Under the pieces are notes generated by a model. The model had not been told where the DNA came from. It saw only the letters and a list, made by a program, of their open reading frames with translations, and did no database searches. 35,659 nt of DNA, taken from IMG/VR virus record IMGVR_UViG_3300024520_000256; one strand, written 5' to 3'. Positions 598-35,659 of the stretch are shown here, piece after piece; positions within the stretch are counted from its first letter, which is position 1, and each line of letters opens with the position of its first letter. The position numbers were made by a program, and so were the translations under genes. Source of the DNA: a virus.

Positions 598-1354
598 TTG
601 TTTCCTTTTGTTGGTTGGCTAGTTCTTGCATGAAATCGTCTTGAAGGTGTTGTATTTGAGATTTAGGTTTTTCAACTTTTGGTAATTCTTGTTCCCAACA
701 GCGTTTATTTAACCAAGTAGAAAGACCTTTCCAGCTCGGACAAAATGCGTCAATTTCTGCTAAAAACTGTTTATGTTCGATTTCTTTATTGAGGGCTGGA
801 AGTAATTTTGGAAGAATTTCTTTGAATTCAGATTTGTATTTTTTCTTAAAGTTTTTCCATTCTGTTTCATATCCGTTTTTAACTCCTGGAAAAACAGAAC
901 GAAAACTTTCAAAATCACTATTAATTATTTCATTCTTAACCTTCTTCTCTTTCTTTATATTCTTGTTTGTGTTCACTGGTTGTTCATCTGTTGTTCGTTG
1001 GTTGTTCACTGGTTGTTCATTTGGTTGTTCATTTTCTTGATAGGACCCCCAGTTAACCACTGATATCAAACGGCTACGGTTAGATTTCTGTTGTTCAATC
1101 TGTTGTTCGGTTTTCAAACACTTTATGATACGCTCAACCTTTGACTCTTGAATTCCGGTTTGTTTAGAAAGTGACCCTCTAGACGTGATAAATTCACCTG
1201 GTTTTAAGGTTATTATCTTACCTCCAAAATTGGACCGATAAGGCGTATGTGTTGCTAAAAGTAGGAAGGTAATCCATAGATTCATAAAATCTGAATCATT
1301 AGATTTGGGGTGGTCTAAGAGTTTTCTGTGTAGTTTTATCCAACCTTGATTCAT
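518..1354 (-). CDS. Replisome organiser / replication initiator-like winged-helix protein
   Basis: The N-terminus MNQGWIKLHRKLLD...LW..LLL.A...GEFITS...L....G....V.R is typical of phage replisome-organiser N domains. I moved the start to ATG 1354 (GAAGGG SD), because the track start at 1423 is TTG. An iteron array lies in the linker. Confidence 0.55.
   Translation of the reverse strand: MNQGWIKLHRKLLDHPKSNDSDFMNLWITFLLLATHTPYRSNFGGKIITLKPGEFITSRGSLSKQTGIQESKVERIIKCLKTEQQIEQQKSNRSRLISVVNWGSYQENEQPNEQPVNNQRTTDEQPVNTNKNIKKEKKVKNEIINSDFESFRSVFPGVKNGYETEWKNFKKKYKSEFKEILPKLLPALNKEIEHKQFLAEIDAFCPSWKGLSTWLNKRCWEQELPKVEKPKSQIQHLQDDFMQELANQQKETNGTEQRNSNRNLRTIGYNPYIARKKN
966..1031. repeat. Iteron-like array inside the replisome-organiser gene; candidate origin of replication
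   Basis: Perfect TGGTTGTTCA at 977, 999, 1010 and 1022, plus 7/10 copies at 966 and 988. Spacing is 11,11,11,11,12 bp, and an AT-rich stretch lies just below at about 900..960. Confidence 0.5.
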
Positions 1355-1482
1355 GTAACCCTTCTTTTTTGTAACCCGATTGAAGACATGGCGGCTGGGG
1401 TTACGCAGCAATTCCGAGAGCAACCAAGGATACTTTACACCACGATTTAAATTAAATTAATTATTTATCATTTGCAATGTGT

Positions 1483-1644
1483 TTATACTAAAAAAGCACT
1501 GACTAAAAATATTGCTGAAATAGCACTAAGAGGCATTGTTATACAAGCGATTAATTCAGGAGCTATTTGATAATGATAACCTAAAAGAGCTATTATCAAA
1601 GCTGACCCTAAACACAGAATAAATCCTATCACCCTTCCCCTCAT
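1483..1644 (-). CDS. Small membrane protein (53 aa, two predicted TM helices), not in the ORF track; holin-sized
   Basis: Hand translation: MRGRVIGFILCLGSALIIALLGYHYQIAPELIACITMPLSAISAIFLVSAFLV. It has a TGATG overlap with the upstream gene's stop. Confidence 0.45.
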   Translation of the reverse strand: MRGRVIGFILCLGSALIIALLGYHYQIAPELIACITMPLSAISAIFLVSAFLV

Positions 1645-1997
1645 CAAACCCCCCTATCGCTGCTTCTAATACAAGTTGCAATTTTAAATAAATTTGCTGT
1701 GTTAACTTCTAGCTTTCGTAAAAATGGGATTTCGTCTTTTTTTACATAAATATTTCCATACAACATTGAAACCATTCTTGGACGAATTATTAAAAACGTT
1801 AAATAATTGGAAAAATCTTCGTGTCCTTCTTCGTATTTTTCATAACACTCTTCAATATCATCTAAGTCCGTCCTGGTTCCATGAATTCCAGAAGTTCCAA
1901 ACATTATGAAGTTCATATCATCAACACCATCTTCAAAATATTCTTTTAAATAATCAACTGATTCTTCTTTTATGTGAATGTTTTTATAGTGGCTCAT
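1644..1997 (-). CDS. Hypothetical protein (acidic, 117 aa)
   Basis: ORF track; ATGA overlap with the upstream small ORF. Confidence 0.6.
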   Translation of the reverse strand: MSHYKNIHIKEESVDYLKEYFEDGVDDMNFIMFGTSGIHGTRTDLDDIEECYEKYEEGHEDFSNYLTFLIIRPRMVSMLYGNIYVKKDEIPFLRKLEVNTANLFKIATCIRSSDRGV

Positions 1998-2149
1998 TGC
2001 TTACCTTCTTCCTTTAATACTTCTAACATCCTTTCTAAGTCTTTTTTAGAAAGCTTTACTTCATAGAATACTCCAGAAAACGTATTACCAAATACGATAA
2101 TATTATCTTTTTCTTTATAAAAGAGACGCCCTTCTTCTGTTTCAGTCAT
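1994..2149 (-). CDS. Hypothetical protein (51 aa), not in the ORF track
   Basis: Hand translation MTETEEGRLFYKEKDNIIVFGNTFSGVFYEVKLSKKDLERMLEVLKEEGKQ. AGAGGA SD, and ATGA overlap with the next gene. Confidence 0.5.
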   Translation of the reverse strand: MTETEEGRLFYKEKDNIIVFGNTFSGVFYEVKLSKKDLERMLEVLKEEGKQ

Positions 2150-2164
2150 TCTTATCCTCTAATT

Positions 2165-2332
2165 TCATAATAGCCTTTTGGGTTTATTTATCTTAACGGT
2201 ATCCTCACACCTGCCCGGTTTATCTTTCATGTTTTTAATTCGCTCAAAGATTTCAGTTTCTTCTTTCATATCCTGAAATAATTGCTCATTTGCTTGTTTT
2301 ATTTGTTCTTCTGATATTTTAGGTCTATACAT
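2165..2332 (-). CDS. Hypothetical protein (55 aa; shortened from the 101-aa track ORF)
   Basis: Internal ATG at 2332 is preceded by an AAAGGAAA SD. The longer N-terminus would run through the hairpin that follows SSB. Confidence 0.4.
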   Translation of the reverse strand: MYRPKISEEQIKQANEQLFQDMKEETEIFERIKNMKDKPGRCEDTVKINKPKRLL

Positions 2333-2427
2333 ATTTTTTCCTTTATTTTCAACACAATTAAATCTCAAAACCTGGTTCTGTGATTTAAAAAGAGAGATAG
2401 GGGGTTGTGCGTATATATGAGAGAATG

Positions 2428-2444
2428 CCCCTACCTCCCAGGGG
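2428..2444 (-). terminator. GC-rich hairpin immediately after the SSB stop codon (possible terminator or processing site)
   Basis: The minus strand reads CCCCU-GGGAGGU-AGGGG, a 5-bp stem with a 7-nt loop. The downstream tract is only moderately U-rich. Confidence 0.3.
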
Positions 2445-2786
2445 TTATAACATTTGAATGTTGTTTGCAATTATTTCTGTTCTATATTTCTTTTGTCCTG
2501 TTTGTGGGTCCTCCCAAGAGCGGTAATTAAGTTTGCCCTCAATAAATAAAGGACTACCCTTTTTAAGGTAGTTCTCTGCTATTTCAGCTAATCTTTTATA
2601 ACACGCTATATTGTGCCATTGGGTACTCTCTTTCTTTACACCTTGGTTATCAGTGTATTTCTCTGTCGTAGCAACTGAAAAGGAAGCTGTTTTTGTTCCT
2701 GTATTTGTGCTTCCTATTTCGGGCTCTTGGCCAATGTTTCCAATCAAAGTTACTTTATTTAAAGTTGGCACATCTAATCCCCTCAT
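2445..2786 (-). CDS. ssb: Single-stranded DNA-binding protein: OB fold only, with no C-terminal acidic tail
   Basis: NKVTLIGNIGQEPE...FSVAT...TQWHNIACYKRLAEIAENYLKKGSPLFIEGKL..RSWED is the classic bacterial/phage SSB OB-fold pattern. The protein ends at NNIQML. Confidence 0.8.
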   Translation of the reverse strand: MRGLDVPTLNKVTLIGNIGQEPEIGSTNTGTKTASFSVATTEKYTDNQGVKKESTQWHNIACYKRLAEIAENYLKKGSPLFIEGKLNYRSWEDPQTGQKKYRTEIIANNIQML

Positions 2787-3726
2787 CTAAAATTGATTTC
2801 ACTTCAGTATACATTTGTTTGTTTACATTTGATTTGAATTCATATTTGCTTTTAAGTTCAGCCAAATCTTTTAACAAGTCTTGCACCTTTTCGGAATCAC
2901 CTTTATTCAAATCAGCTTGAATCCTAGCTTCTTCTTCCTCTTTGGCTTTTAATTCAGCTTCTTTTTGGGCTTTTATCTTATCTTCGAGTTTTTTTCTTTC
3001 TTCAGCTTCTTTTTTTAGTTTAGCTTGATTTTCTGCTTGCACCCTTCTATTCTCTGCGTGAAGTTCAGCCTCTCTAAAACGTTGAAACTCAAGCTCTTTT
3101 TTGCGCTCAGCTTCTTTTTCTGCAGCTTCTGCCCTAAGCTTTTCATTCTCTTTATAAACACGTTGCCTTTCAGCTTTAACCTTTTCCTCTTCTTCCTTGG
3201 CTTTCTGAGCGGCTTCTTCTCGTGTTTTAAGAAGAAGCTCATGATTTGTTTTAGCACCTGAAAGAAAGATTCCCCAAAACTTTTCGGACATATCACCCAA
3301 ATCATCTGGAATAGGGTTTACACCATACTTCATTAAATCTTTAGCTCTAGAAGCTTGAACGGTTTGAATTCGTTCCTTTTCTATGTTCTCATAGTGCTTT
3401 TCAATCTCTTTTAATTTATCCTCATTTCCTTTAGATGCCATAATTTGAGCATTTTTCCAACCATCTACAAACCTCCCCCCCTTTAGGTAAAACTCTTTTA
3501 GCTTCTTATGAACTTCTGCTGTGCCAGTCCTGACTTTAACGTATTTATTCCGAAGCTTTTTAGCTTCTTCACAAACTTCTTCAGTGATATCTTTTTTAAT
3601 AATATCATTGTAATCCTCTTCTAAATCTTTCATTTTATCCAACATCGGAATGAATAATTCAGAAATCTCCTTTGCTTTTGTCGATTCTAAACCATATTCT
3701 GTTGGGTTTACTGTCATTAATTCCAT
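2755..3726 (-). CDS. DUF1351-like protein with a long Lys/Glu-rich coiled coil
   Basis: The N-terminal segment KLRNKYVKVRTGTAEVHKKLKEFYLKGGRFVDGWKN resembles the DUF1351 pattern seen next to phage recombinases (from memory). The C-terminal half is a KE-rich heptad-like repeat. Confidence 0.4.
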   Translation of the reverse strand: MELMTVNPTEYGLESTKAKEISELFIPMLDKMKDLEEDYNDIIKKDITEEVCEEAKKLRNKYVKVRTGTAEVHKKLKEFYLKGGRFVDGWKNAQIMASKGNEDKLKEIEKHYENIEKERIQTVQASRAKDLMKYGVNPIPDDLGDMSEKFWGIFLSGAKTNHELLLKTREEAAQKAKEEEEKVKAERQRVYKENEKLRAEAAEKEAERKKELEFQRFREAELHAENRRVQAENQAKLKKEAEERKKLEDKIKAQKEAELKAKEEEEARIQADLNKGDSEKVQDLLKDLAELKSKYEFKSNVNKQMYTEVKSILDEGIRCANFK

Positions 3727-4906: not shown

Positions 4907-4950
4907 CTTGTTATATATAAATTATATATAATATTTATATAAATATCAAG
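4907..4950 (-). promoter_or_regulatory. Triple-TATATAA element, copy B
   Basis: Boxes at 4914, 4925 and 4936, flanked by CTTG 4907..4910 and CAAG 4947..4950. The minus strand reads a perfect TTGATA-17-TATAAT. Confidence 0.65.
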
Positions 4951-4971: not shown

Positions 4972-5373
4972 TTAATTTTGCGGTAAATTATAAATCGTTA
5001 TTATACAATCCTTTCCTTTAATTATTTTAGTTAGTTCTTTTTCTGCGCTTCCTTGTATAACTTCCGGCTTAGGTCTAAACTTAGCCGTTAAAATACAGCC
5101 TTCAGTATTTAAATGTGTATTTCCCCCATGGAGTCTTATTCCTGTGAATTGAGGGACATTTAATAATTCTGGCATTATCCTTTTAAATCGATTTGAATAA
5201 GAGGTAGTCACTTTATACTCACCTTTTATGATAGCCGTATGTTTTGGAATTTTAATCCATTCAGGCCTCACAACATCTTCGAGGGTCCATGAAAACAATT
5301 CACCATCTAAATAAAGCTTTCCTATTGTTGTTTTAAGAAAATACTCAAGTCGATATAAATCTAATTTTATCAT
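4972..5373 (-). CDS. DUF5675-like protein with a YkuD-like H-G-N...G-C motif; possible cell-wall enzyme
   Basis: TIGKLYLDGE..WTLED....IP.HTAIIKGEYKV..SYSNRFKR..PELLNVPQFTGIRLHGGNTHLNTEGCIL matches my memory of DUF5675. The start is set at ATG 5373 because the track start is TTG. Confidence 0.55.
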   Translation of the reverse strand: MIKLDLYRLEYFLKTTIGKLYLDGELFSWTLEDVVRPEWIKIPKHTAIIKGEYKVTTSYSNRFKRIMPELLNVPQFTGIRLHGGNTHLNTEGCILTAKFRPKPEVIQGSAEKELTKIIKGKDCIITIYNLPQN

Positions 5374-5450
5374 TTTTAGCCTGTTCAATTCTAGAAACTA
5401 AAGATTTGTTCACTTTTAAAGTAATCAAACCCCTAGTTAATATTACTATC

Positions 5451-6710: not shown

Positions 6711-6759
6711 CCCTTGTTTGATATATAAAATATATATAATAATTATATAAACACAAGGG
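6711..6759 (-). promoter_or_regulatory. Triple-TATATAA element, copy C
   Basis: Boxes at 6722, 6733 and 6744, flanked by the 7-bp inverted repeat CCCTTGT 6711..6717 / ACAAGGG 6753..6759. Confidence 0.65.
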
Positions 6760-7641
6760 CTAAAATAACTCTGGGATAGATTTCTTTACTTTCATGATAA
6801 CATGTCTTTTTAATTGTTTGTAATCAATTTGAGGGTCTTTATTTTCCTTAATGAAATTCCATGACTCCTCTCTGATAAGGTCATAATAAACCGTGTTAAG
6901 TAGTCTAGGAATATATTTAGTTCTCCAACCGTCTTCAGCATTCCGAATCTTCTCATAGACCTTTTGAACAAAGTGAGGGGTGATATATTTATCTGTAATT
7001 TTCTTTTCTACAGCCAATTTTTCTTTAATATCCAAAGGGTCATTCATTGCTCTGTGTTTATCTTTGAATTCATTTCTCACAATTTTAGCCCAAGTTTGAC
7101 GGCCATATTTATTTTGATAAGAATAATTCTTAAGCACAACCCCCTCACCAATTCCTTCATCAATTAGATAAGTGTTTTTCTCACACATTTCATAAAGAGT
7201 TTCTGGTTTTGCGTCTTCAATTCTACACAAAGGAGGAATGAATTCTATTTCAAATTCTCTTAAAACATGGGCATAGTCATTATAATGAATTACCCCACTT
7301 GGACCGTAAACATCAAATACATAGAACTTTCTCCAAGCTGTTTTTCTATATGTCTTCAAAGAATGAGGGATTAACCATTCACCAAATAAACGCCAATCAG
7401 GATAGAGTAAGAGCAAATTGGCAAAACGCTCATCTTCAAGAATAGCCTTCATAAATCCTTGATTGTCATCATCTAAGGAAAGCTCACGATTTCTTGAACC
7501 ACACTTTAGCTCGTTCCCTTTTCGCCATACAGAGCCGTTTGACCCGTCTAGTTTAGGGAATACATAAACAACGCCCTCTTCAATTCCTTTTGTTTCTACA
7601 GTTTCATATCTTTCAACATGCTGATATCTTTTGAAATTCAT
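6760..7641 (-). CDS. RNA ligase, Rnl2-like nucleotidyltransferase family
   Basis: Motif I KLDGSN (Lys30), motif III LFGEWL, IIIa FYVFDV, IV EGVVLK and V WAKIVR, in the order expected for T4 Rnl2-type ligases. Confidence 0.75.
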   Translation of the reverse strand: MNFKRYQHVERYETVETKGIEEGVVYVFPKLDGSNGSVWRKGNELKCGSRNRELSLDDDNQGFMKAILEDERFANLLLLYPDWRLFGEWLIPHSLKTYRKTAWRKFYVFDVYGPSGVIHYNDYAHVLREFEIEFIPPLCRIEDAKPETLYEMCEKNTYLIDEGIGEGVVLKNYSYQNKYGRQTWAKIVRNEFKDKHRAMNDPLDIKEKLAVEKKITDKYITPHFVQKVYEKIRNAEDGWRTKYIPRLLNTVYYDLIREESWNFIKENKDPQIDYKQLKRHVIMKVKKSIPELF

Positions 7642-7663: not shown

Positions 7664-7748
7664 AAGAGAATGAAGGAATTGAACCCTCGCCAGTTTTATC
7701 TGGGCCACGCCTTAGCAAGGCAGCACATTACCACTCTGTCAATTCTCC
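7664..7748 (-). tRNA. tRNA-Ser (anticodon GCU), class II with a long variable arm; no encoded CCA
   Basis: Hand fold: acceptor GGAGAAU/AUUCUCU, D-loop AGUGGUAA, anticodon loop UUGCUAA, variable stem GCCAG/CUGGC, T-arm GAGGG-UUCAAUU-CCUUC. Confidence 0.85.
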
Positions 7749-7841: not shown

Positions 7842-8012
7842 TTAATTTCTAGTGTATAGTCTTTTAAGCTGTTTAAAGTTTAACATTCTGTCCCTAACAC
7901 ACCCTTTTTTAAGTTTTTTAACGCCTAAAAAAGCTGTGTACAAAACAACTCTTTCTTCTTCCGTTTGGCTTAGAAGATATTTTCTTAATTGTTTTACTCG
8001 TTTTCCATTCAT
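7842..8012 (-). CDS. Small, very basic protein (56 aa), not in the ORF track
   Basis: Hand translation MNGKRVKQLRKYLLSQTEEERVVLYTAFLGVKKLKKGCVRDRMLNFKQLKRLYTRN, with 16 Lys/Arg. ATGA overlap with the RHH gene stop. Confidence 0.45.
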   Translation of the reverse strand: MNGKRVKQLRKYLLSQTEEERVVLYTAFLGVKKLKKGCVRDRMLNFKQLKRLYTRN

Positions 8013-8170
8013 ACTTTTAGTTTTTTCTTTTTAAAATCTTTACGTAAAAGTTCCATAACGTAAGCGGTCATGTTTCCCCTATGGCCCGCTAGTTTGGAAG
8101 CTGCTTTAATTGTCTTTTTAAACGCTGGCTCCATCCAAAATAGGACGGAGGTTATTTCTTCACTTTCCAT
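8009..8170 (-). CDS. Ribbon-helix-helix (Arc/CopG/MetJ-like) DNA-binding protein (53 aa), not in the ORF track
   Basis: Hand translation MESEEITSVLFWMEPAFKKTIKAASKLAGHRGNMTAYVMELLRKDFKKKKLKV. The pattern is beta-strand, helix, G-x-x-N/S, helix. AGAGG SD, directly after element D. Confidence 0.6.
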   Translation of the reverse strand: MESEEITSVLFWMEPAFKKTIKAASKLAGHRGNMTAYVMELLRKDFKKKKLKV

Positions 8171-8186
8171 GCAAACCTCTATATGT

Positions 8187-8222
8187 TATATAGGTAATAT
8201 ATAATAATTATATAGGCTTGAC
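8187..8222 (-). promoter_or_regulatory. Triple-TATATAA element, copy D (divergent: outer boxes are TATATAGG and there is no clear -35)
   Basis: Boxes at 8187 (TATATAGG), 8198 (TATATAAT) and 8209 (TATATAGG). The 11-bp phasing is the same as in the other copies. Confidence 0.55.
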
Positions 8223-8596
8223 TATACCTTTCTACATTTGACATTAATTAGAAAGTCTATATGTGAAGTTAAATCTTCCATTTTATCTTTACATAAATAA
8301 GTGTCATAACCACTTAAGCCTGCAACTGTGGTAATGCTTTCTTCATGTCCTGTAAGGATTAGGAGGGGAATTCTAAACTTAAACTTAAGCTCAACTAGCT
8401 CCTGGTTTAGTTTATAGCTTTTGTCAGGCAAGTTAACATCTAATATGATTAAATCATACCTGTTTCTTTTAAGGGCTTCTAGTCCCTCTGTAAGGGTGTA
8501 TTTTGATTCACAGTCATAATGGCCTTCGACCTCCATTTTAGACTTTATACCATAACAAAACCCTTCATTGTCATCTATTAGGATTATCCTTTTCAT
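8222..8596 (-). CDS. Stand-alone response-regulator receiver (CheY-like REC) domain protein
   Basis: Asp8-Asp9 (ILIDDN), Asp53 (LIILDVNLPD), Thr82 (LLILTGH) and Lys103 (YLCKD) have canonical REC spacing. At 124 aa there is no output domain. Confidence 0.8.
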   Translation of the reverse strand: MKRIILIDDNEGFCYGIKSKMEVEGHYDCESKYTLTEGLEALKRNRYDLIILDVNLPDKSYKLNQELVELKFKFRIPLLILTGHEESITTVAGLSGYDTYLCKDKMEDLTSHIDFLINVKCRKV

Positions 8597-9083
8597 TTTG
8601 TGGCATTTCTTTCATAAAAGAGGAAAATATTTTTATCAATTCTGCATGCTGTGCATCTTGTTTAGTGCTAATATCCAACATCCACTCTGCTGCGAACTCT
8701 CTATCACTTCCTTGTGTTCCAACTAGCTTATCATAAATAATAAATTTAGGTTTTACAAAGCTTTTCCACTCTTCAAATATTCTTTTTAGTTCTGCTTGTT
8801 CTTTCCTCATCTCTCTTACTGCAACCCATATCTCTTCTTGTTCCTTTTCTCGTTCTGACCTAGCCTTTAGTAGGGGGAACAATTTAAAGAGCTTAAAAGC
8901 CTTAGAAGATGTTTTTCGAGTGAGGATAAATATTATTGCTGTGAGAGCTACACAAATAAAAGCTAGAATTCGCCATTCAATAGGCCAGCCCTCATATAAA
9001 ATGATGCTCTCATTGGCAATATGTACACCTTCCTCAATGAACTCTAGTTCTGAGACTTGTATAAGAGGAACAGTATCAGACAT
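8571..9083 (-). CDS. Single-pass membrane protein with a C-terminal coiled-coil region
   Basis: TM segment WRILAFICVALTAIIFILT (about aa 37-55) followed by KE-rich helices. It overlaps the REC gene by 26 nt and has a TAATG junction with the upstream gene. Confidence 0.6.
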   Translation of the reverse strand: MSDTVPLIQVSELEFIEEGVHIANESIILYEGWPIEWRILAFICVALTAIIFILTRKTSSKAFKLFKLFPLLKARSEREKEQEEIWVAVREMRKEQAELKRIFEEWKSFVKPKFIIYDKLVGTQGSDREFAAEWMLDISTKQDAQHAELIKIFSSFMKEMPQNEKDNPNR

Positions 9084-9871
9084 TAATTATCTACAACAAT
9101 AATGTCAAAATCAGCTGAACCTGAAATATCAGCAGCAGAAGCAATACCATTCATTTTTATAATAGCAGGGCCTTCAATTTCAAATTCTGGGTCAAAAGGG
9201 TGATCATCACTAGATTTTCCATTACTCTGGACCCCTATTGCATGGTCAGACCTAAAATTTGTTAATTCTACTGTTGGATTATCGTTTATAAGTAAACGAT
9301 AAGTAATTGCAGCGGTTGACCCAGATGATTTCAAAATAGTTGCACTAAAAGCAGTAAGATAAGCTTTTTGAATAGATGGGATTCCATAAATAGCCATTTG
9401 TGTGCTCCCTATTCCCGGAAGAATAGCGGCTGTCACTGTACTATCTGTCTGAGCTGTGGCTGTAATTGTTCCAACATTTATATTAGTAGCCCCCCACGTT
9501 TGAACTTTCATTCTATAAATAATTACATAAGCGTTTGATGTTGCAACATCAGTTGTACCATTCAAAGTAACTGTTTCTGATACTTCAGCAGTTGCCCAAG
9601 ATGTTAATCCAAAAATTTTAACTGTTTGAGCTCCCACACCAACCGGGTCTCCATCGTCACTAGTGGAAGAACTAACAATATTATGTAGCCTCGCTTCAGT
9701 TGGGGCTACCCAAATTTGCTGTGTGGGTGTTGCATCTGCTCTATCCCAAACATCTGTAGGCGTAGCTTGAATACCAGAATCAGCAAAACCCCATTTATTC
9801 TCACTCCTCATGCCCGGAACGAGCCCTCTAGCTATGTCAAGTTTTGACATGCCATTTCCTTGCTTTTGCAT
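9083..9871 (-). CDS. Putative virion/tail-associated beta-rich protein
   Basis: 262 aa, Thr/Ser/Gly-rich and beta-rich, translationally coupled within the tail gene string. No motif I can name with confidence. Confidence 0.45.
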   Translation of the reverse strand: MQKQGNGMSKLDIARGLVPGMRSENKWGFADSGIQATPTDVWDRADATPTQQIWVAPTEARLHNIVSSSTSDDGDPVGVGAQTVKIFGLTSWATAEVSETVTLNGTTDVATSNAYVIIYRMKVQTWGATNINVGTITATAQTDSTVTAAILPGIGSTQMAIYGIPSIQKAYLTAFSATILKSSGSTAAITYRLLINDNPTVELTNFRSDHAIGVQSNGKSSDDHPFDPEFEIEGPAIIKMNGIASAADISGSADFDIIVVDN

Positions 9872-16048: not shown

Positions 16049-16890
16049 TATTTAATTCCACCTTGTAAGGCCAAAAGAGGGAGTAGTTGCTGAATAGTTC
16101 CGAATGGGCCACCCATAGCTCTACCCTGTGCAATTTCACGAGCGGAGCTAATATTGCCTAATGCCTGTTGACTTTGGGCTAGTTGTTGCCCTTGTCCTAC
16201 AAACTGACCACCGATTGAAGAAGCCAATTGAGGCCCAACGTTTGCGAGCCCTGCTAATGTACTTATTGGGGCTTGTTGTTCTGCAAATTGTTGACGCCTT
16301 CCAGCTAATAATTCACCAAACCTTTGACCCTGTGTTTGTGCTGCGAGTTGTTGCTGTGCTAAATTCTGCCCAAACTGTTGACCTTGTTGAGACTGAAAAC
16401 GATTAAAAGCTTGCCCCGCTTCTTGAGAGGCTAACCCTTGGTTAAACCTTAAAGATTCCTTTATGGCTCTTCCACCTAAAGCCCTACCTTTAGATGCTCC
16501 AAATCTTTCCAAAGCTTGTTCACCTTGTTGCTGTCTAAATTGAAAACCTGGGTCTTGTCCTAATATATCTTGAAGGGTGAATTGTTGTTGCCCTTGTTGG
16601 GGTTGAAAAGCTTGCGTTCCAGGTTCCAATGCTTGAGGCTGTTGCCCTAGTTGTTGGGTTGTTAAATCTTGTAGCGTTTGAAATGCTTGTTGCCCTCGTC
16701 TTAGAAAGGGTTGTTGAATTCCTAAAGCTTGTTGGAATTGTTGTTGTTGTTGCTTTTGTCCCTTTTCAACTGCTCTTGTTTGAATCCTTGCCGCATCTCT
16801 AGCAGATTCACCTTCAATTAAATTTTTAGCTATTCCAGAAGCTAATAACCCGCCACCAATCGCTAAAGCTGTTCCCGTTGCAACCGCCAT
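16048..16890 (-). CDS. Gln/Gly-rich internal virion protein candidate (gp7 position)
   Basis: N-terminal hydrophobic AIGGGLLASGIA. The DPGFQFRQQQGEQALER...GRALGGRAIK pattern recurs in podovirus internal proteins (from memory). Extensive Q-rich low complexity. Confidence 0.45.
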   Translation of the reverse strand: MAVATGTALAIGGGLLASGIAKNLIEGESARDAARIQTRAVEKGQKQQQQQFQQALGIQQPFLRRGQQAFQTLQDLTTQQLGQQPQALEPGTQAFQPQQGQQQFTLQDILGQDPGFQFRQQQGEQALERFGASKGRALGGRAIKESLRFNQGLASQEAGQAFNRFQSQQGQQFGQNLAQQQLAAQTQGQRFGELLAGRRQQFAEQQAPISTLAGLANVGPQLASSIGGQFVGQGQQLAQSQQALGNISSAREIAQGRAMGGPFGTIQQLLPLLALQGGIK

Positions 16891-17357
16891 TAATCTAACT
16901 CCTTAACATAATGAGTCTCTATTTCTCTATACCCTTTTTTTGTATAGATAGACTTTAATTTTTCAGGCATTAATTCATTAAGATGAACCATTGTTAATCT
17001 TTTAACCCCTAATTCCTCACTGATTTCTTCAAACCTATTTAAAAGCCGAAGCCCTCCGCCCCTATGCTCTTTTCTCATATACCAAAACGTTTCTGTAGCA
17101 GATAGCTCACCATCTAGAATATCTTCATAAAAGATAAAGCCAAACATTCCAACGATTTCGCCTTTTTTATGAGCTTTTAATATTATTCCCGTTCCGTTAT
17201 TGTAGAAGTTAATCCAATTTCTTTTGAAAACATCTTCTTTAAATGAGAAAGAGCTGTTCGATTCTTCAACAAACTCATAGCCTAGAGGGTATAATTGCTC
17301 GATATCCTGTACTTCTAGGATATCTATCTGTAATTTTTCATTAATTGTTTCTACCAC
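16890..17357 (-). CDS. GNAT-family N-acetyltransferase
   Basis: Motif A: MRKEHRGGGLRLLNRFEEISEELGVKRLTM (R-x-x-G-x-G type acetyl-CoA loop), preceded by beta strands IVGMFGFIF. GTG start with an AAGGAA SD. Confidence 0.7.
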   Translation of the reverse strand: MVETINEKLQIDILEVQDIEQLYPLGYEFVEESNSSFSFKEDVFKRNWINFYNNGTGIILKAHKKGEIVGMFGFIFYEDILDGELSATETFWYMRKEHRGGGLRLLNRFEEISEELGVKRLTMVHLNELMPEKLKSIYTKKGYREIETHYVKELD

Positions 17358-17440: not shown

Positions 17441-17917
17441 TTAAATAATAATCCTATAGTTTCCCGTAATTGATATTGAATCAGTCACAGTTGCCCATGT
17501 TGGAGTATAATGTCTTACCTTCCCATTTAATGTACCTGTGCTCTTTAGAACAGGCCCTGAACCGATACTAATATTGGTTGATATATTGTCTGTTTGGCCT
17601 TGCCCATCAACAGCAGAGAGAAAGGGTAAATTATTTATATATGTGGTTCCCGCTGTACTTGAAGTGTTTGTACCTGGAACAATTTTTACATCAAAAAAGA
17701 CCATGGTATTGAACCTATAATAATTTCCTGTAATTGTTGCCGTCCCTACTTCAGTCAAACTCGTAAACGTTGGAGTGAATGATATGACTTGACTATTTCT
17801 TTGCCCAAGCATCTTTTCAATACTTGTAAACCATTTTCCCCACACAAGACCTAAGCCATTCATTCCGAATAATTGGGATTGAATAGGTGCTGGGTTTATA
17901 TATTCTTTTGCGTCCAT
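17441..17917 (-). CDS. Hypothetical virion protein
   Basis: 158 aa, beta-rich; TAATG junction with the upstream gene. Confidence 0.45.
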   Translation of the reverse strand: MDAKEYINPAPIQSQLFGMNGLGLVWGKWFTSIEKMLGQRNSQVISFTPTFTSLTEVGTATITGNYYRFNTMVFFDVKIVPGTNTSSTAGTTYINNLPFLSAVDGQGQTDNISTNISIGSGPVLKSTGTLNGKVRHYTPTWATVTDSISITGNYRIII

Positions 17918-19065
17918 TAATTTCTTAAAGCCTTACTTTCAATTGTTCCACCCGTAATAGCTACTTTCACCTTGGATGTAGTTTGAATTTCATAAACTCT
18001 ATTTCTTGATGTTCCGAGCCTATCCCACCTAACCCTAGTTTCATACTCTCCTTTTTTACCCATTGAGCGCCAATGCTCATTTCCCCAAGACCTAGCCCCA
18101 TTTTCTGACCATCTAAGTCTTATTTGTGGGTCTACATCTGGACCAGCCACAATAGTGTAATTAACAGCTGAGCTCGTTCCTTCAGTTGTTGTCAAAGTGA
18201 CAGGATGAACCCCCAATTCTAAACCGGGAACCGTCACCCCTGTTATTAAAGTGGGGTTGTATGTTGTTCCTGTAACTGCCGTTCCATCAAAATCAATTGT
18301 GGGGTCAGCAATTGAAGGAGAATTTAAAAGGTTTGTTCTATCTGAAGAGGTTAATAAATAATTATCATAATATCTGAAATCATCAATTTGACCGTCAAAA
18401 TAATTAGCAACTCCAGAACCATAATCTGAAGCACCTACCCTTAAAAATCCTGTTGTAGAATCAAAAGTTGAAGATGTACCAGGGCCAATAGTTGAAACAT
18501 TATCAATATAAACAGTAGTTAACATTGTTCTAGGAGAAGAAAAAAGGGTTCTAGTTACGATAATATTATACCAAGTATCAACAACCATTGAGCCACCGCG
18601 AGCAGTAAAACTAGGAGGAGTATTGGGTCCATAGTAATAATTTATCCTACCTGAAGCATCCACATAAAGAGTTTGAGCGTTAGTGTCTACAGTTGTATCT
18701 CCATTTTGGAAAATAACCATTGAATCCCTTAATACGTCCATCTTAATCCAAAAAGACATAGACCAAGTTCTTAAATCATCAGTGGTCCCCATAATTCCAG
18801 GGTGGGTTAAAGTGCTCGTTACATACTGAGAAGTTCCATTTAAATTTATTGCTTGATTTATTTTACCCGTTACATATGTGGGAGAACCCGAACTCGTTTG
18901 AGCGTAGTTTCCTAATGCGTCTGTATCATCCCCGTCAAAACGTAGGTGCATACTTCCAGCGTTGCCAACTGTAGGTTCTACTTTTAAATCGGTTCCTATT
19001 ATTCCAAATGTAGAACCAACAATACCCCTATTGGGTTGTAAGCTTGTGATTGCTGGGGCGGTCAT
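17917..19065 (-). CDS. LamG (concanavalin-like lectin) domain protein with IPT-like segments and a gp10-type C-terminal module
   Basis: LRFDGDD...INLNGTSQYV...WSMSFWIKMD...YFDGQIDDFRYYD is the Laminin_G_3 pattern. The last 70 aa are paralogous to the 77-aa ORF 19065..19298. Confidence 0.6.
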   Translation of the reverse strand: MTAPAITSLQPNRGIVGSTFGIIGTDLKVEPTVGNAGSMHLRFDGDDTDALGNYAQTSSGSPTYVTGKINQAINLNGTSQYVTSTLTHPGIMGTTDDLRTWSMSFWIKMDVLRDSMVIFQNGDTTVDTNAQTLYVDASGRINYYYGPNTPPSFTARGGSMVVDTWYNIIVTRTLFSSPRTMLTTVYIDNVSTIGPGTSSTFDSTTGFLRVGASDYGSGVANYFDGQIDDFRYYDNYLLTSSDRTNLLNSPSIADPTIDFDGTAVTGTTYNPTLITGVTVPGLELGVHPVTLTTTEGTSSAVNYTIVAGPDVDPQIRLRWSENGARSWGNEHWRSMGKKGEYETRVRWDRLGTSRNRVYEIQTTSKVKVAITGGTIESKALRN

Positions 19066-19298
19066 TAATTCCTCAATGGCTTAGTTTCGATTGTTCCGCC
19101 TTTTATTGCAACTTTTACGGGAGCCGTTACCCTTATCTCATAAATCCTGTTTCTCGCTACACCTAAACGATTCCATTTTATTCTCTTTCTATACTCACCC
19201 TTCTTGCCCATTGGAAGCCAATGTTCATTACTCCAATTTCTGGCTTTATTATTTGACCATCTAAGCATTATTTGGGGGTTAGATTCTGCTTCAGCCAT
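19065..19298 (-). CDS. Stand-alone copy of the gp10-type C-terminal module (77 aa)
   Basis: PQIMLRWSNNKARNWSNEHW..MGKKGEY.KR.KWNRLG.ARNRIYEI...VKVAIKGGTIE. 48 of 70 positions are identical to the C-terminus of 17917..19065. TAATG junctions on both sides. Confidence 0.65.
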   Translation of the reverse strand: MAEAESNPQIMLRWSNNKARNWSNEHWLPMGKKGEYRKRIKWNRLGVARNRIYEIRVTAPVKVAIKGGTIETKPLRN

Positions 19299-20542
19299 TA
19301 GCTTGTTAACCCCACACCTGTTTCCATAACAATTTGTAAACTATTATGTCTTACTCTTTTTTCATCTGAATCTATGTGCTGACAAGTTCTAATTCTTGGT
19401 ATTCTATCCCCATTATCATCATAAGTATTTGTATCAAATTCATAAATAAGAGGTTTACTGTGGTCTCCAACTAATACTTTATTGAATGCTGAAATAGCAT
19501 TTATTCCTCTATGCTTCTTGAGGTTTCCCGTTGAGGGTTGTAAATAGGCTTTCTCATGCCAAACCCCTGTAACTTCATCATAACAAAATGTCATTTCGTC
19601 AGCTTGGAATGATAATGTATAAACTGGATGCCCTTCTAATTCGTATGTATACCCAACAGCATCTTCAGGAGTAGACATTTCATTTATCTTTCTTTCAATT
19701 GGGTGGGTACTTATTCTTTGTGATTGAAAGTTTACACTTTTGTAAATGCTACCAATTCCTTGTTCACTTCTTCCCAACCAGAAAATAGAATCATTCATTT
19801 TGGCAGCGGAATATCTAGCCAATATACCACGCTCAATTATAGCTCCTGGTATTCTTTCCATTGGGAAATCGTTGTTTCCCGTATCCTGAAAAACTTCAAC
19901 ACCATTTGAACCAAGCAACCAAATGTTTTGATTAGTGATTAAGAAAGATTCAATTATATCCGGGTTGCTTTCAGCTGTTCCGAAATCTAAAGCGTTCCAT
20001 GTAGTACCATCCAACAGCCCAGAGATAAAGAAGTCTTGTGTATTAAGTTGATTAACTAGAAAGAACTGGTCTAAGAAACCTGCATGTGTTGGAGAGCTTG
20101 GAAACCCTCCAGAGTTTGGAAAGTTGGTTGTGTTTATTTCCAATAATGTATTAGTGGTTAAAGTAAGTAGATATCCATTGAACCCATCCACAATCAACAA
20201 CTCAGAACCATTATCAACCATACTGACAGTTCCAATAGTTGTATTAATTGTACCTAGATTTGTTTCTATTCCTGAGCTATTAACCTCATAAAGAATATTT
20301 CCAGATACTGTAAAATACCTTCCTTTTGCTGTTTTATATTGACCCCTAATCCCTCCGCCTGTAGTCAAATTGGCAAATAGCTTTAAGCCTGGAGTTCCGT
20401 ACATTATTTGACCATCTGTATTTTGAGACTCTGGAGGAGCGTATTCTAAATATAGATTTACAGACCTTTGAGCCGCAAATGGTAAACTTCTGGCCTCATA
20501 AGCAGGCCCAAGAAAAGGAAACTTCAAGAAATAGTACTCCAA
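19298..20542 (-). CDS. P22 gp10-like tail hub / packaged-DNA stabilisation protein; body only
   Basis: FLGPAYEARS...NLY.E........MYGTPGL... is the N-terminal pattern of the phage stabilisation protein family. The gene follows the gp4-like adaptor, as in P22. Confidence 0.55.
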   Translation of the reverse strand: MEYYFLKFPFLGPAYEARSLPFAAQRSVNLYLEYAPPESQNTDGQIMYGTPGLKLFANLTTGGGIRGQYKTAKGRYFTVSGNILYEVNSSGIETNLGTINTTIGTVSMVDNGSELLIVDGFNGYLLTLTTNTLLEINTTNFPNSGGFPSSPTHAGFLDQFFLVNQLNTQDFFISGLLDGTTWNALDFGTAESNPDIIESFLITNQNIWLLGSNGVEVFQDTGNNDFPMERIPGAIIERGILARYSAAKMNDSIFWLGRSEQGIGSIYKSVNFQSQRISTHPIERKINEMSTPEDAVGYTYELEGHPVYTLSFQADEMTFCYDEVTGVWHEKAYLQPSTGNLKKHRGINAISAFNKVLVGDHSKPLIYEFDTNTYDDNGDRIPRIRTCQHIDSDEKRVRHNSLQIVMETGVGLTS

Positions 20543-33002: not shown

Positions 33003-33057
33003 CCTTGTTGTTGTTTGTTAATATATAAAATATATATAACTATTATATAAATCCAAG
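33003..33057 (-). promoter_or_regulatory. Triple-TATATAA element, copy E
   Basis: Boxes at 33022 (TATATAAA), 33033 (TATATAAC) and 33044 (TATATAAA), with CCTTG 33003..33007 and CAAG 33054..33057. Confidence 0.6.
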
Positions 33058-35515: not shown

Positions 35516-35532
35516 TTTGCTCTCTCCTTCGT

Positions 35533-35659
35533 TGTATATAAATATTATATAATTAATATATAAACATCAAGACATTTTTTCAAATTCTGCAATTTTCTTT
35601 AATCTGTCCTTTACTCTCCATACTCTCACTTGGTTTATTGAAAAGCCAATCATTAAACC
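35533..35659. repeat. Second copy of the terminal overlap (same as 1..127)
   Basis: Exact match to 1..127 read by eye. Confidence 0.95.

Follow-up and report, generated by a model that had tools for sequence, protein, structure and literature searches.

Receiver domains are the universal phospho-switch of bacterial signaling, and in phages they have been listed only as unexplained "auxiliary" genes. IMG/VR record IMGVR_UViG_3300024520_000256, a viral sequence of 35,659 nucleotides (nt) that we refer to in its entirety as the window, raises the question of what a phage might do with a receiver that stands alone and whose gene overlaps that of a membrane protein. The two genes concerned encode TM170, a protein of 170 amino acids (aa) with one predicted transmembrane (TM) helix, and REC, a receiver of 124 aa. 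Both open reading frames (ORFs) and their overlap lie exactly where a preliminary description of this locus had placed them, and that description was also right to see them as the last genes of a long late block after the tail genes. They lie past the tailspike and a tail-fiber-like gene, with a promoter-like 40-nt motif as the next element. The features of the locus are as follows.

8571..9083, minus strand: gene for TM170, a 170-aa bitopic membrane protein, stop codon at 8571-8573 (ORF; hydropathy and charge)
8976-9083, minus strand: TM170 residues 1-36, predicted acidic periplasmic N-tail (charge, positive-inside rule)
8919-8975, minus strand: TM170 residues 37-55, predicted TM helix (hydropathy)
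8574-8918, minus strand: TM170 residues 56-170, basic juxtamembrane stretch and charged, predicted helical cytoplasmic domain (charge, low-confidence model)
8571..8596, minus strand: out-of-frame overlap of 26 nt between the end of TM170 and the start of REC (coordinates)
8222..8596, minus strand: stand-alone REC gene, 124 aa, with the codon for Asp53 at 8438-8440 (ORF; Pfam PF00072)
9081..9085, minus strand: TAATG stop/start junction joining TM170 to the upstream 262-aa tail-fiber-like gene at 9083-9871 (sequence, ORF coordinates)
8183..8222, minus strand: boundary element right after the REC stop, a copy of the 40-nt motif with a -10-like TATAAT (repeat family, alignment)

A stand-alone receiver and its membrane partner

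The Pfam family PF00072 (Response_reg) matches the 124-aa protein with 45.1 bits against a gathering score of 30.2 (E 1.3e-11). Because this match spans residues 4-113 and profile positions 1-110 of 111, the protein is predicted to be a receiver domain with nothing else and with no space for an output domain, as had been claimed. The catalytic residues named earlier (Asp8, Asp9, Asp53, Thr82, and Lys103) are likewise correct: in HMMER alignments to BasR/PmrA structures and in a MAFFT alignment with E. coli CheY, D8/D9, D53, T82, and K103 of REC align with D12/D13, D57, T87, and K109 of CheY. To these we add the switch tyrosine, Y100 of REC, which lies opposite Y106 of CheY. REC is without the usual Gly at D+8 and without a Pro after the catalytic Lys. 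With its catalytic set intact, REC is apparently a bona fide stand-alone receiver that is competent for phosphorylation.

Forty-four receiver chains in the PDB match REC at E<=1e-3, and the best matches in both NCBIfam and the PDB are receivers of the OmpR/PhoB type, namely BasR/PmrA (3w9s/4s04; E 7e-9), CtrA, YycF, PhoP, and ArlR, which span REC residues 3-117 with E-values of 7e-9 to 1e-6 and identities of about 30-35%. NCBIfam scores reach at most 44 bits, while every equivalog cut-off is at least 250 bits and so lies over 200 bits out of reach. Of the 46 NCBIfam families that REC matches, the 25 listed include no CheY model, and there are no che genes in this phage genome. The earlier label "CheY-like" therefore holds for the receiver superfamily, but by these matches REC does not appear to be CheY proper, and nothing ties it to chemotaxis. 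We also rejected the identity of an OmpR/PhoB transcription regulator for REC, as Pfam finds no winged-helix DNA-binding domain (Trans_reg_C) in the 124 residues and the equivalog cut-offs are missed.

TM170 contains a single strongly hydrophobic segment (residues 37-55; Kyte-Doolittle mean 2.36). Its 36-residue N-tail lacks Lys and Arg and has a net charge of -8, and the stretch of 21 residues past the helix carries +7; because of this charge distribution and the positive-inside rule, the protein is predicted to be N-out/C-in, with the N-tail in the periplasm and the C-terminal 115 residues in the cytoplasm. The single helix and cytoplasmic C-terminus of the preliminary description are thus borne out by hydropathy and charge, whereas its coiled coil is recovered only in part, as a long helix at about residues 78-120 in a low-confidence single-sequence AlphaFold model (predicted local distance difference test score, pLDDT, 43.1). 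TM170 has no match in Pfam, PHROG, NCBIfam, PADLOC, or the PDB, and a word index of 5.8 billion clusters returned identical copies only. HisKA, HATPase_c, and Hpt domains are silent for both proteins even at E<=1, in agreement with the earlier statement that neither is a histidine kinase. A classical two-component pair was rejected on these grounds, TM170 having neither HisKA/DHp nor HATPase_c and no Pfam match of any kind at E<=1.

Several European Nucleotide Archive (ENA) metagenome assemblies contain contigs of about 35 kb that carry identical copies of the pair. For an estimate of selection we used a natural variant (L045), a 644-bp contig from sample ERZ27250004 that is 93.5% identical to the window and covers positions 8102-8744. 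REC differs from this variant at 19 synonymous and 5 non-synonymous positions (dN/dS 0.055; binomial p 9e-10), and the last 57 codons of TM170 differ at 12 synonymous and 5 non-synonymous positions (dN/dS 0.064; binomial p 2e-6). The amino acid changes in REC (K2R, K20Q, V23I, and H26R) are all conservative and distant from the active site, and the catalytic set is unchanged. TM170 and REC are therefore genuine genes under strong purifying selection rather than chance ORFs, and as this selection acts on the minus-strand frames, the plus-strand ORFs that overlap the pair are spurious.

Neither gene has a Shine-Dalgarno motif of its own in a survey that found one for 32 of the 53 genes in the genome. 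Stop/start junctions in the style of the TAATG that precedes TM170 recur along the chain of tail genes. The 40-nt motif is present in five copies (4910-4949, 6718-6757, 8183-8222, 33018-33057, and 35531-35570), all intergenic and each preceding a minus-strand gene block; it consists of three invariant TATATA boxes with 11-bp phasing. Because the next copy follows REC and there is none between 33018 and 8222, we place the pair at the 3′ end of a long late transcription unit. The boundary after REC also has a sigma-70-like match (8234..8207), and not a single substitution separates the window from the 93.5%-identical variant across 8171-8221. By its sequence, the motif probably serves the next transcription unit, or the early and middle units, as promoter or operator, and a small protein encoded just downstream, at 8009-8170, perhaps binds it. 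This protein looks ribbon-helix-helix-like by eye and has no match in Pfam or NCBIfam.

A second phage with the pair, and the rarity of the module

An exhaustive phmmer search of 1.84 billion representative proteins with REC returned only its own fragment above 1e-30; all other matches stay at or below about 42% identity, and multiple receivers are present in many of the top-scoring proteins. As nothing exceeds this identity among the representatives, REC appears to be an old, divergent orphan and not the recent capture of a host regulator. Its best single-domain relative is P0024, called at 123 aa, with which it shares 34% identity across 116 residues (pairwise E 7e-22) and a local score of 182, the next single-domain match reaching 144. 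P0024 is encoded on a phage fragment from a JGI metagenome, which we refer to as L059 (2,289 bp; GC content 35.9%), in the order virion structural protein (phrog_1645, E 4.5e-35), 183-aa ORF (752-1303), receiver, and small phospholipase A2 (PLA2)-like protein. The true start of the L059 receiver is a TTG behind AGGAGG, which gives MIKILMIEDN... and an overlap of 32 nt with the 183-aa gene. Both phage receivers keep D/E8, D9, D53, T82, and K103.

The product of the 183-aa gene (L059_183) has the same layout as TM170:

N-tail net charge: TM170, -8; L059_183, -4
TM helix: TM170, residues 37-55; L059_183, residues 29-47
Charge of the 25 residues past the helix: TM170, +7; L059_183, +5
Charged C-terminal domain: TM170, 115 aa; L059_183, 136 aa

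The two N-tails share E14 and E18-G19-V20 at the same distance from Met1, as well as W-P-x(0-2)-W at the entrance of the helix. Their similarity has a z of 5.8 (0 of 2000 shuffles), and that of the whole proteins a global z of 5.2. Phrog_726 matches L059_183 weakly (E 1.4e-4) but not TM170, and the remaining genes of L059 show no resemblance to any part of the window. Because the overlapping pair has been kept in two otherwise unrelated phages, each time right after a virion structural gene, the combination of a bitopic membrane protein and a stand-alone receiver appears to be a conserved phage module that is translationally coupled; its kept overlap argues for coupled expression and joint function. 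The earlier proposal that the receiver is coupled to the membrane protein is strengthened by this recurrence.

Two apparent signatures of the phage receivers did not hold up as shared traits. A catalytic Lys not followed by Pro is not special to them, since K-P is present in only 42 of the 149 best matches, and a seeming deletion in the β3-α3 loop is really a Gly substitution at D+8, which is also found in about 10 of the 149.

The module is rare. Motif scans that were able to detect both known copies found nothing in IMG/VR, a DNA motif shared by the receivers is absent from 185,579 representative genomes, and relatives of TM170 or REC in cultured phages, IMG/VR, and the 5.8-billion-cluster word index are limited to identical or near-identical copies of the same phage. 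Twenty-two "phage" tblastn matches to REC are generic receivers of about 30% identity, mostly from unannotated or host-derived records, and a metagenome scan with the L059 receiver yielded only ordinary bacterial operons of OmpR-type regulators and kinases. Other receiver-type phage families are known (PHROGs 731, 5982, and 37855) and have no assigned function; the profiles of phrog_731 (227 positions) and phrog_5982 (1030 positions) represent multi-domain proteins, unlike the stand-alone REC. A receiver-type gene of Alteromonas phage V22 is also listed without a function (PMC7289586). In jumbo phages, the cREC domains are divergent receivers linked to enzymes of NAD+/ADP-ribose or cyclic-nucleotide metabolism and never to classical signaling (PMC7824862). 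We rejected this identity for REC, which matches classical PF00072, has the full catalytic quintet, and has no adjacent NAD/ADP-ribose genes. None of the known phage proteins of the receiver superfamily has been described with an overlapping membrane partner or an assigned function, and in the searchable literature we found no report of a phage that pairs a lone receiver with a dedicated membrane protein that is not a kinase and is encoded by an overlapping gene; the preliminary description likewise knew of no such phage system.

The upstream 262-aa gene, by comparison, is common to 42 viral loci (42-59% identity). Because none of the 42 encodes a relative of TM170 or REC, and because the gene content that follows is highly variable among them, the pair is an accessory cassette in a variable slot. 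This accords with one part of the earlier description of the pair as a "moron", but other hallmarks of an independent insertion are lacking: promoter-like sites around the pair number 17 against 14.9+/-4.4 by chance and there is no terminator in 8171-9100 (both by consensus scan), GC content across the pair (0.33-0.37) is like that of the flanks (0.32-0.43) and the genome (0.362), and TM170 is joined to its upstream neighbor by the TAATG junction. The comparison with P22-like phages that accompanied the term is similarly partial. It applies to the head and connector genes, but no integrase, repressor, or excisionase family was recognized in any ORF of the genome, so the logic of lysogenic conversion by P22 morons is not obviously applicable.

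Two further observations concern receivers and membrane proteins in viral contigs. On L059 the module is followed by a 116-aa protein (1639-1989) with a prokaryotic phospholipase-A2-like domain (PF09056; phrog_6098), which could be a membrane-active neighbor. A separate viral contig (L051, IMGVR_UViG_3300005264_000023) encodes at 1096-3395 a 427-aa protein with a receiver and two PAS domains that is stop/start-coupled to a 192-aa single-pass coiled-coil membrane protein, behind which lies a 137-aa lipoprotein with an LFTGC lipobox. This arrangement may be analogous, in that a receiver is linked to proteins of the envelope or of lysis; it was rejected as a homologous module, as TM170 and the 192-aa protein have no significant similarity (E 0.35).

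Possible roles of the pair

We think it likely that TM170 and REC form a functionally coupled module that joins a membrane anchor to a phospho-switch. The phage receiver keeps its full phosphorylation machinery under strong purifying selection, without an encoded kinase, and is co-inherited with an overlapping membrane-protein gene in two phages; the two proteins could thus be a module through which a virus reads or rewires the phosphorylation state of its host at the inner membrane. The best explanation of the locus as a whole, which we put forward tentatively yet regard as a serious prospect, is a coupled late module in which a host-phosphorylated switch acts on a late membrane event. On insertion of TM170, the short acidic N-tail would face the periplasm and the charged helical domain of about 115 residues the cytoplasm, and the stand-alone receiver, made from the overlapping frame, would dock on that domain. 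As the phage encodes no kinase, the phosphodonor would come from the host, either a HisKA-type sensor kinase or acetyl phosphate, and would phosphorylate Asp53 of REC; phosphorylation would then switch the activity or the oligomeric state of TM170. The process controlled would be a late inner-membrane event, the timing of lysis, with TM170 being holin-like or holin-regulating and the receiver serving as its cytoplasmic phosphorylation-dependent regulator, in effect an antiholin or an activator. We infer the physical interaction of TM170 with REC, the host phosphodonor, and the role in lysis alike.

Single receivers without an output domain are well known from bacteria, among them CheY, Spo0F, DivK, CpdR, and EpsW, and REC resembles this group in its full phospho-acceptor set and switch tyrosine. 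Unlike them, REC is encoded by a phage in a late operon, is paired by overlap with a membrane protein that is not a kinase, is not close in sequence to any cellular receiver, and has neither a cognate kinase nor chemotaxis or phosphorelay neighbors. Single-domain regulators act through protein-protein contact, and EpsW, a lone receiver of Myxococcus, is reported to control an integral membrane enzyme directly (PMC12802240).

Why lysis might be the process in question follows from several features of the genome, for which two further ORFs are needed.

4972-5388: DUF5675 protein, 138 aa, the only endolysin candidate (Pfam; phrog_1501)
1483-1647: unannotated 54-aa ORF with two predicted TM helices and a TTG start, between the DnaD-like gene and a 117-aa gene; alternative holin candidate

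Xanthomonas phage PBR31 shares homology with this phage in the connector, the ejection proteins, and the N-terminus of the tailspike, and in PBR31 the slot after "tailspike + structural protein" is occupied by holin, lysozyme, and spanin. No holin was recognized in the genome, and TM170 and the 54-aa ORF are the only two credible membrane-protein genes. The gene for the DUF5675 protein, a family described as a C82-like peptidase in a preprint of 2026 (bioRxiv 10.64898/2026.04.11.717860), sits amid DNA-metabolism genes without an adjoining membrane-protein gene. This separation of the lysin candidate from TM170 mirrors the arrangement in phage T7. There, lysozyme 3.5 is encoded apart from holin 17.5, and the latter follows tail-fiber gene 17. 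Cytoplasmic regulation of a single-TM holin has precedents as well, in the T/RIII proteins of T4 and, in N4, in gp63/gp62 (PMC12642591). As TM170 and REC would, these systems combine a single-TM phage membrane protein that has a regulatory cytoplasmic part with a separate small regulator, and are made late; the differences are that no sequence homology links them to the pair, that TM170 has the opposite predicted topology, and that its regulator would be a phosphorylatable receiver, a kind of regulator that no described lysis system is known to have. The "Receiver domain" of N4 gp63 was rejected as a precedent for REC, as the two share a name only (PMC12642591). We favor lysis among late processes because of the PBR31 slot, the lack of a recognized holin, the split from DUF5675, and the holin-regulator precedents, and because the timing of lysis is the main late decision of a lytic phage.

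A number of results weigh against this reading. With its late position, its single TM helix followed by a basic juxtamembrane stretch, and its charged C-domain, TM170 has traits that a holin might show, but its size and topology are atypical: at 170 aa it is larger than most holins, and its predicted N-out/C-in single-TM topology differs from that of the class III holins T4 T and N4 gp63. It has no match to any holin family in Pfam or PHROG. The lysin candidate lies about 3 kb from the pair, no spanin was found in the genome, and the 54-aa ORF offers another candidate for the holin. For the docking of REC, a shared surface might be expected, whereas the cytoplasmic domains of TM170 and L059_183 are not significantly similar (z 0.6-1.9); only two members of the module are known; and the single-sequence AlphaFold2 model of REC (pLDDT 43.4) is of as low confidence as that of TM170. 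Taken with these points, a role in lysis timing is possible, if doubtful. The fullest version, in which the receiver reads host kinase activity or the acetyl-phosphate pool, binds a new type of holin or antiholin, and sets the time of lysis as a phage phospho-switch, we consider rather improbable as it stands. An i-spanin/o-spanin pair was rejected outright: charge predicts an N-out/C-in protein, there is no lipobox ORF in or next to TM170, and the overlapping gene encodes a cytoplasmic receiver. Were lysis timing indeed the process controlled, the pair would represent a new principle for how phages decide when to lyse and the first lysis control based on His-Asp chemistry. Lysis would then also be inhibited by a new mechanism, for instance through detection of the envelope stress that superinfection causes. 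The module is conserved and compact, and both proteins are small and easily expressed.

One may postulate an alternative scenario, in line with the suggestion of a phosphate sink or decoy in the preliminary description, in which TM170 tethers the receiver beside host sensor kinases and the receiver drains an OmpR/PhoB-type pathway, for example that of envelope stress, thereby blunting the host response. In the manner of small connector proteins, TM170 may in this case use its conserved periplasmic N-tail and its TM helix to contact the kinase. The intact, conserved, and selected phospho-acceptor set is compatible with such a sink, as is the closeness of REC to OmpR/PhoB-type receivers, which pair with HisKA kinases; the part conserved between TM170 and L059_183, the N-tail and TM helix, is where contact with a membrane protein of the host could occur. 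Bacteria are known to have both phosphate-sink receivers and membrane connectors (SafA, MzrA, and MgrB). The connectors, like TM170 by analogy, are bitopic inner-membrane proteins that modulate phospho-signaling and are not kinases; they are chromosomal, and bind sensor kinases and not receivers. Phage proteins that perturb host two-component systems also exist, PIT4 of phage LSL4 being a reported example (PMC10714779). Against this scenario, the genes lie at the extreme end of a late operon without a promoter of their own, while genes for host reprogramming are usually early; an identity of at most about 42% to any cellular regulator gives no sign of specific mimicry; and the absence of a ribosome-binding site for REC argues against the high copy number required of a sink. 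We regard the draining of a host pathway as unlikely, yet as a live rival to the lysis reading; if it took place, it would amount to a new kind of host takeover.

The position of the pair among and after the virion, ejection, and tail genes could instead point to superinfection exclusion, in which TM170 would block DNA entry by later phages as P22 SieA and T4 Imm do, or to an effector delivered with the virion, the receiver gating the activity in either case. The sieA gene of P22 is positioned after the ejection-protein genes, and the accessory, patchy nature of the cassette and its variable slot would suit such a function. Homology, however, links the pair to no Sie/Imm family and to no ejection protein, there is no indication of packaging, and with no lysogeny genes found, exclusion acting only late in a lytic cycle would be of limited value; we judge both forms of this proposal to be distinctly unlikely.

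Still less probable is a minimal phosphotransfer pair, in which the cytoplasmic domain of TM170 would be a divergent, ATPase-less module of the DHp or Hpt type that exchanges phosphoryl groups with the receiver or dephosphorylates it. The order of a membrane protein followed by an overlapping receiver resembles that of kinase-regulator operons, the domain is helical in the low-confidence model, and H146 of TM170 sits in a C-terminal amphipathic helix, with His residues in the corresponding region of L059_183; against this, the HisKA, Hpt, and HATPase_c profiles are silent, neither TM170, L059_183, nor a profile of the two has a PDB relative, and the C-domains are not significantly similar, with no His shared in one MAFFT column. 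Equally remote is an anti-defense decoy that mimics the receiver domain of a host anti-phage system or its regulator and so prevents activation, since the weak similarity of both phage receivers to receiver-containing PADLOC candidates (PDC-M60B/C and SduA variants) amounts to 14-25 bits over about the first 60 residues only, as expected of any receiver, the membrane proteins have no PADLOC match, and late expression is ill-suited to the task. Membership of the pair in a known PADLOC defense system was rejected for the same generic scores.

Genome setting

Positions 1-127 and 35533-35659 of the window are 100% identical over 127 nt; because of these identical ends, the window is a circularly closed assembly, that is, a complete genome of 35,532 bp. 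All genes are on the minus strand and follow one another along transcription in this order:

Minus strand, first part: small early genes; small and large terminase; P22-like portal; scaffold; major capsid protein
Minus strand, second part: P22 gp4- and gp10-like connectors; acetyltransferase; ejection proteins; 796-aa pectate-lyase-type tailspike
Minus strand, third part: three small genes including the 262-aa tail-fiber-like protein (phrog_8198); TM170; REC
Minus strand, second block, after a gap of 51 nt past REC: two small genes; tRNA-Ser(GCT); RNA ligase; DUF5675 protein; SSB; DnaD-like loader

The likeness to P22 lies in the head and connector module, at only about 30-34% identity, and the phage would by these similarities be a podovirus of about 35.5 kb with P22-like head and connector genes. 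Shine-Dalgarno usage, together with the genera that the nearest cultured relatives infect (Vibrio, Shewanella, Thalassomonas, Xanthomonas, and Rhodoferax), points to a Gram-negative proteobacterium as host. The nearest genomic portals (34-35% identity) are on contigs of metagenome-assembled genomes (MAGs) of Bdellovibrionota (L060 and L061; JADJOF010000007.1, 259.5 kb, from a Bdellovibrionales MAG), possibly as prophages from a group of phages that is only distantly related. Across Bdellovibrionota and other MAGs, the relatives of the portal (30-35% identity) are not accompanied by the module and do not indicate the host.

The P22 gp10-like gene is seemingly split and partly duplicated within 17917-20542. 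The split may be genuine, or the arrangement may reflect readthrough or frameshifting, or the duplication of a domain. The parts of this arrangement and two other features of the genome are listed below.

19298-20542: ORF matching positions 5-400 of the Hc3 profile; the adjacent 77-aa ORF at 19065-19298 matches positions 402-472
17917-19065: ORF with a Laminin_G_3 domain, the C-terminus of which again matches Hc3 positions 402-470
7664-7748, minus strand: tRNA-Ser(GCT) (ARAGORN; Rfam 46.8 bits), between two small ORFs and the RNA ligase (6760-7641)
16890-17357: acetyltransferase (phrog_1249), between the connector and ejection genes

Xanthomonas phage PBR31 carries an acetyltransferase at the position equivalent to the last of these.

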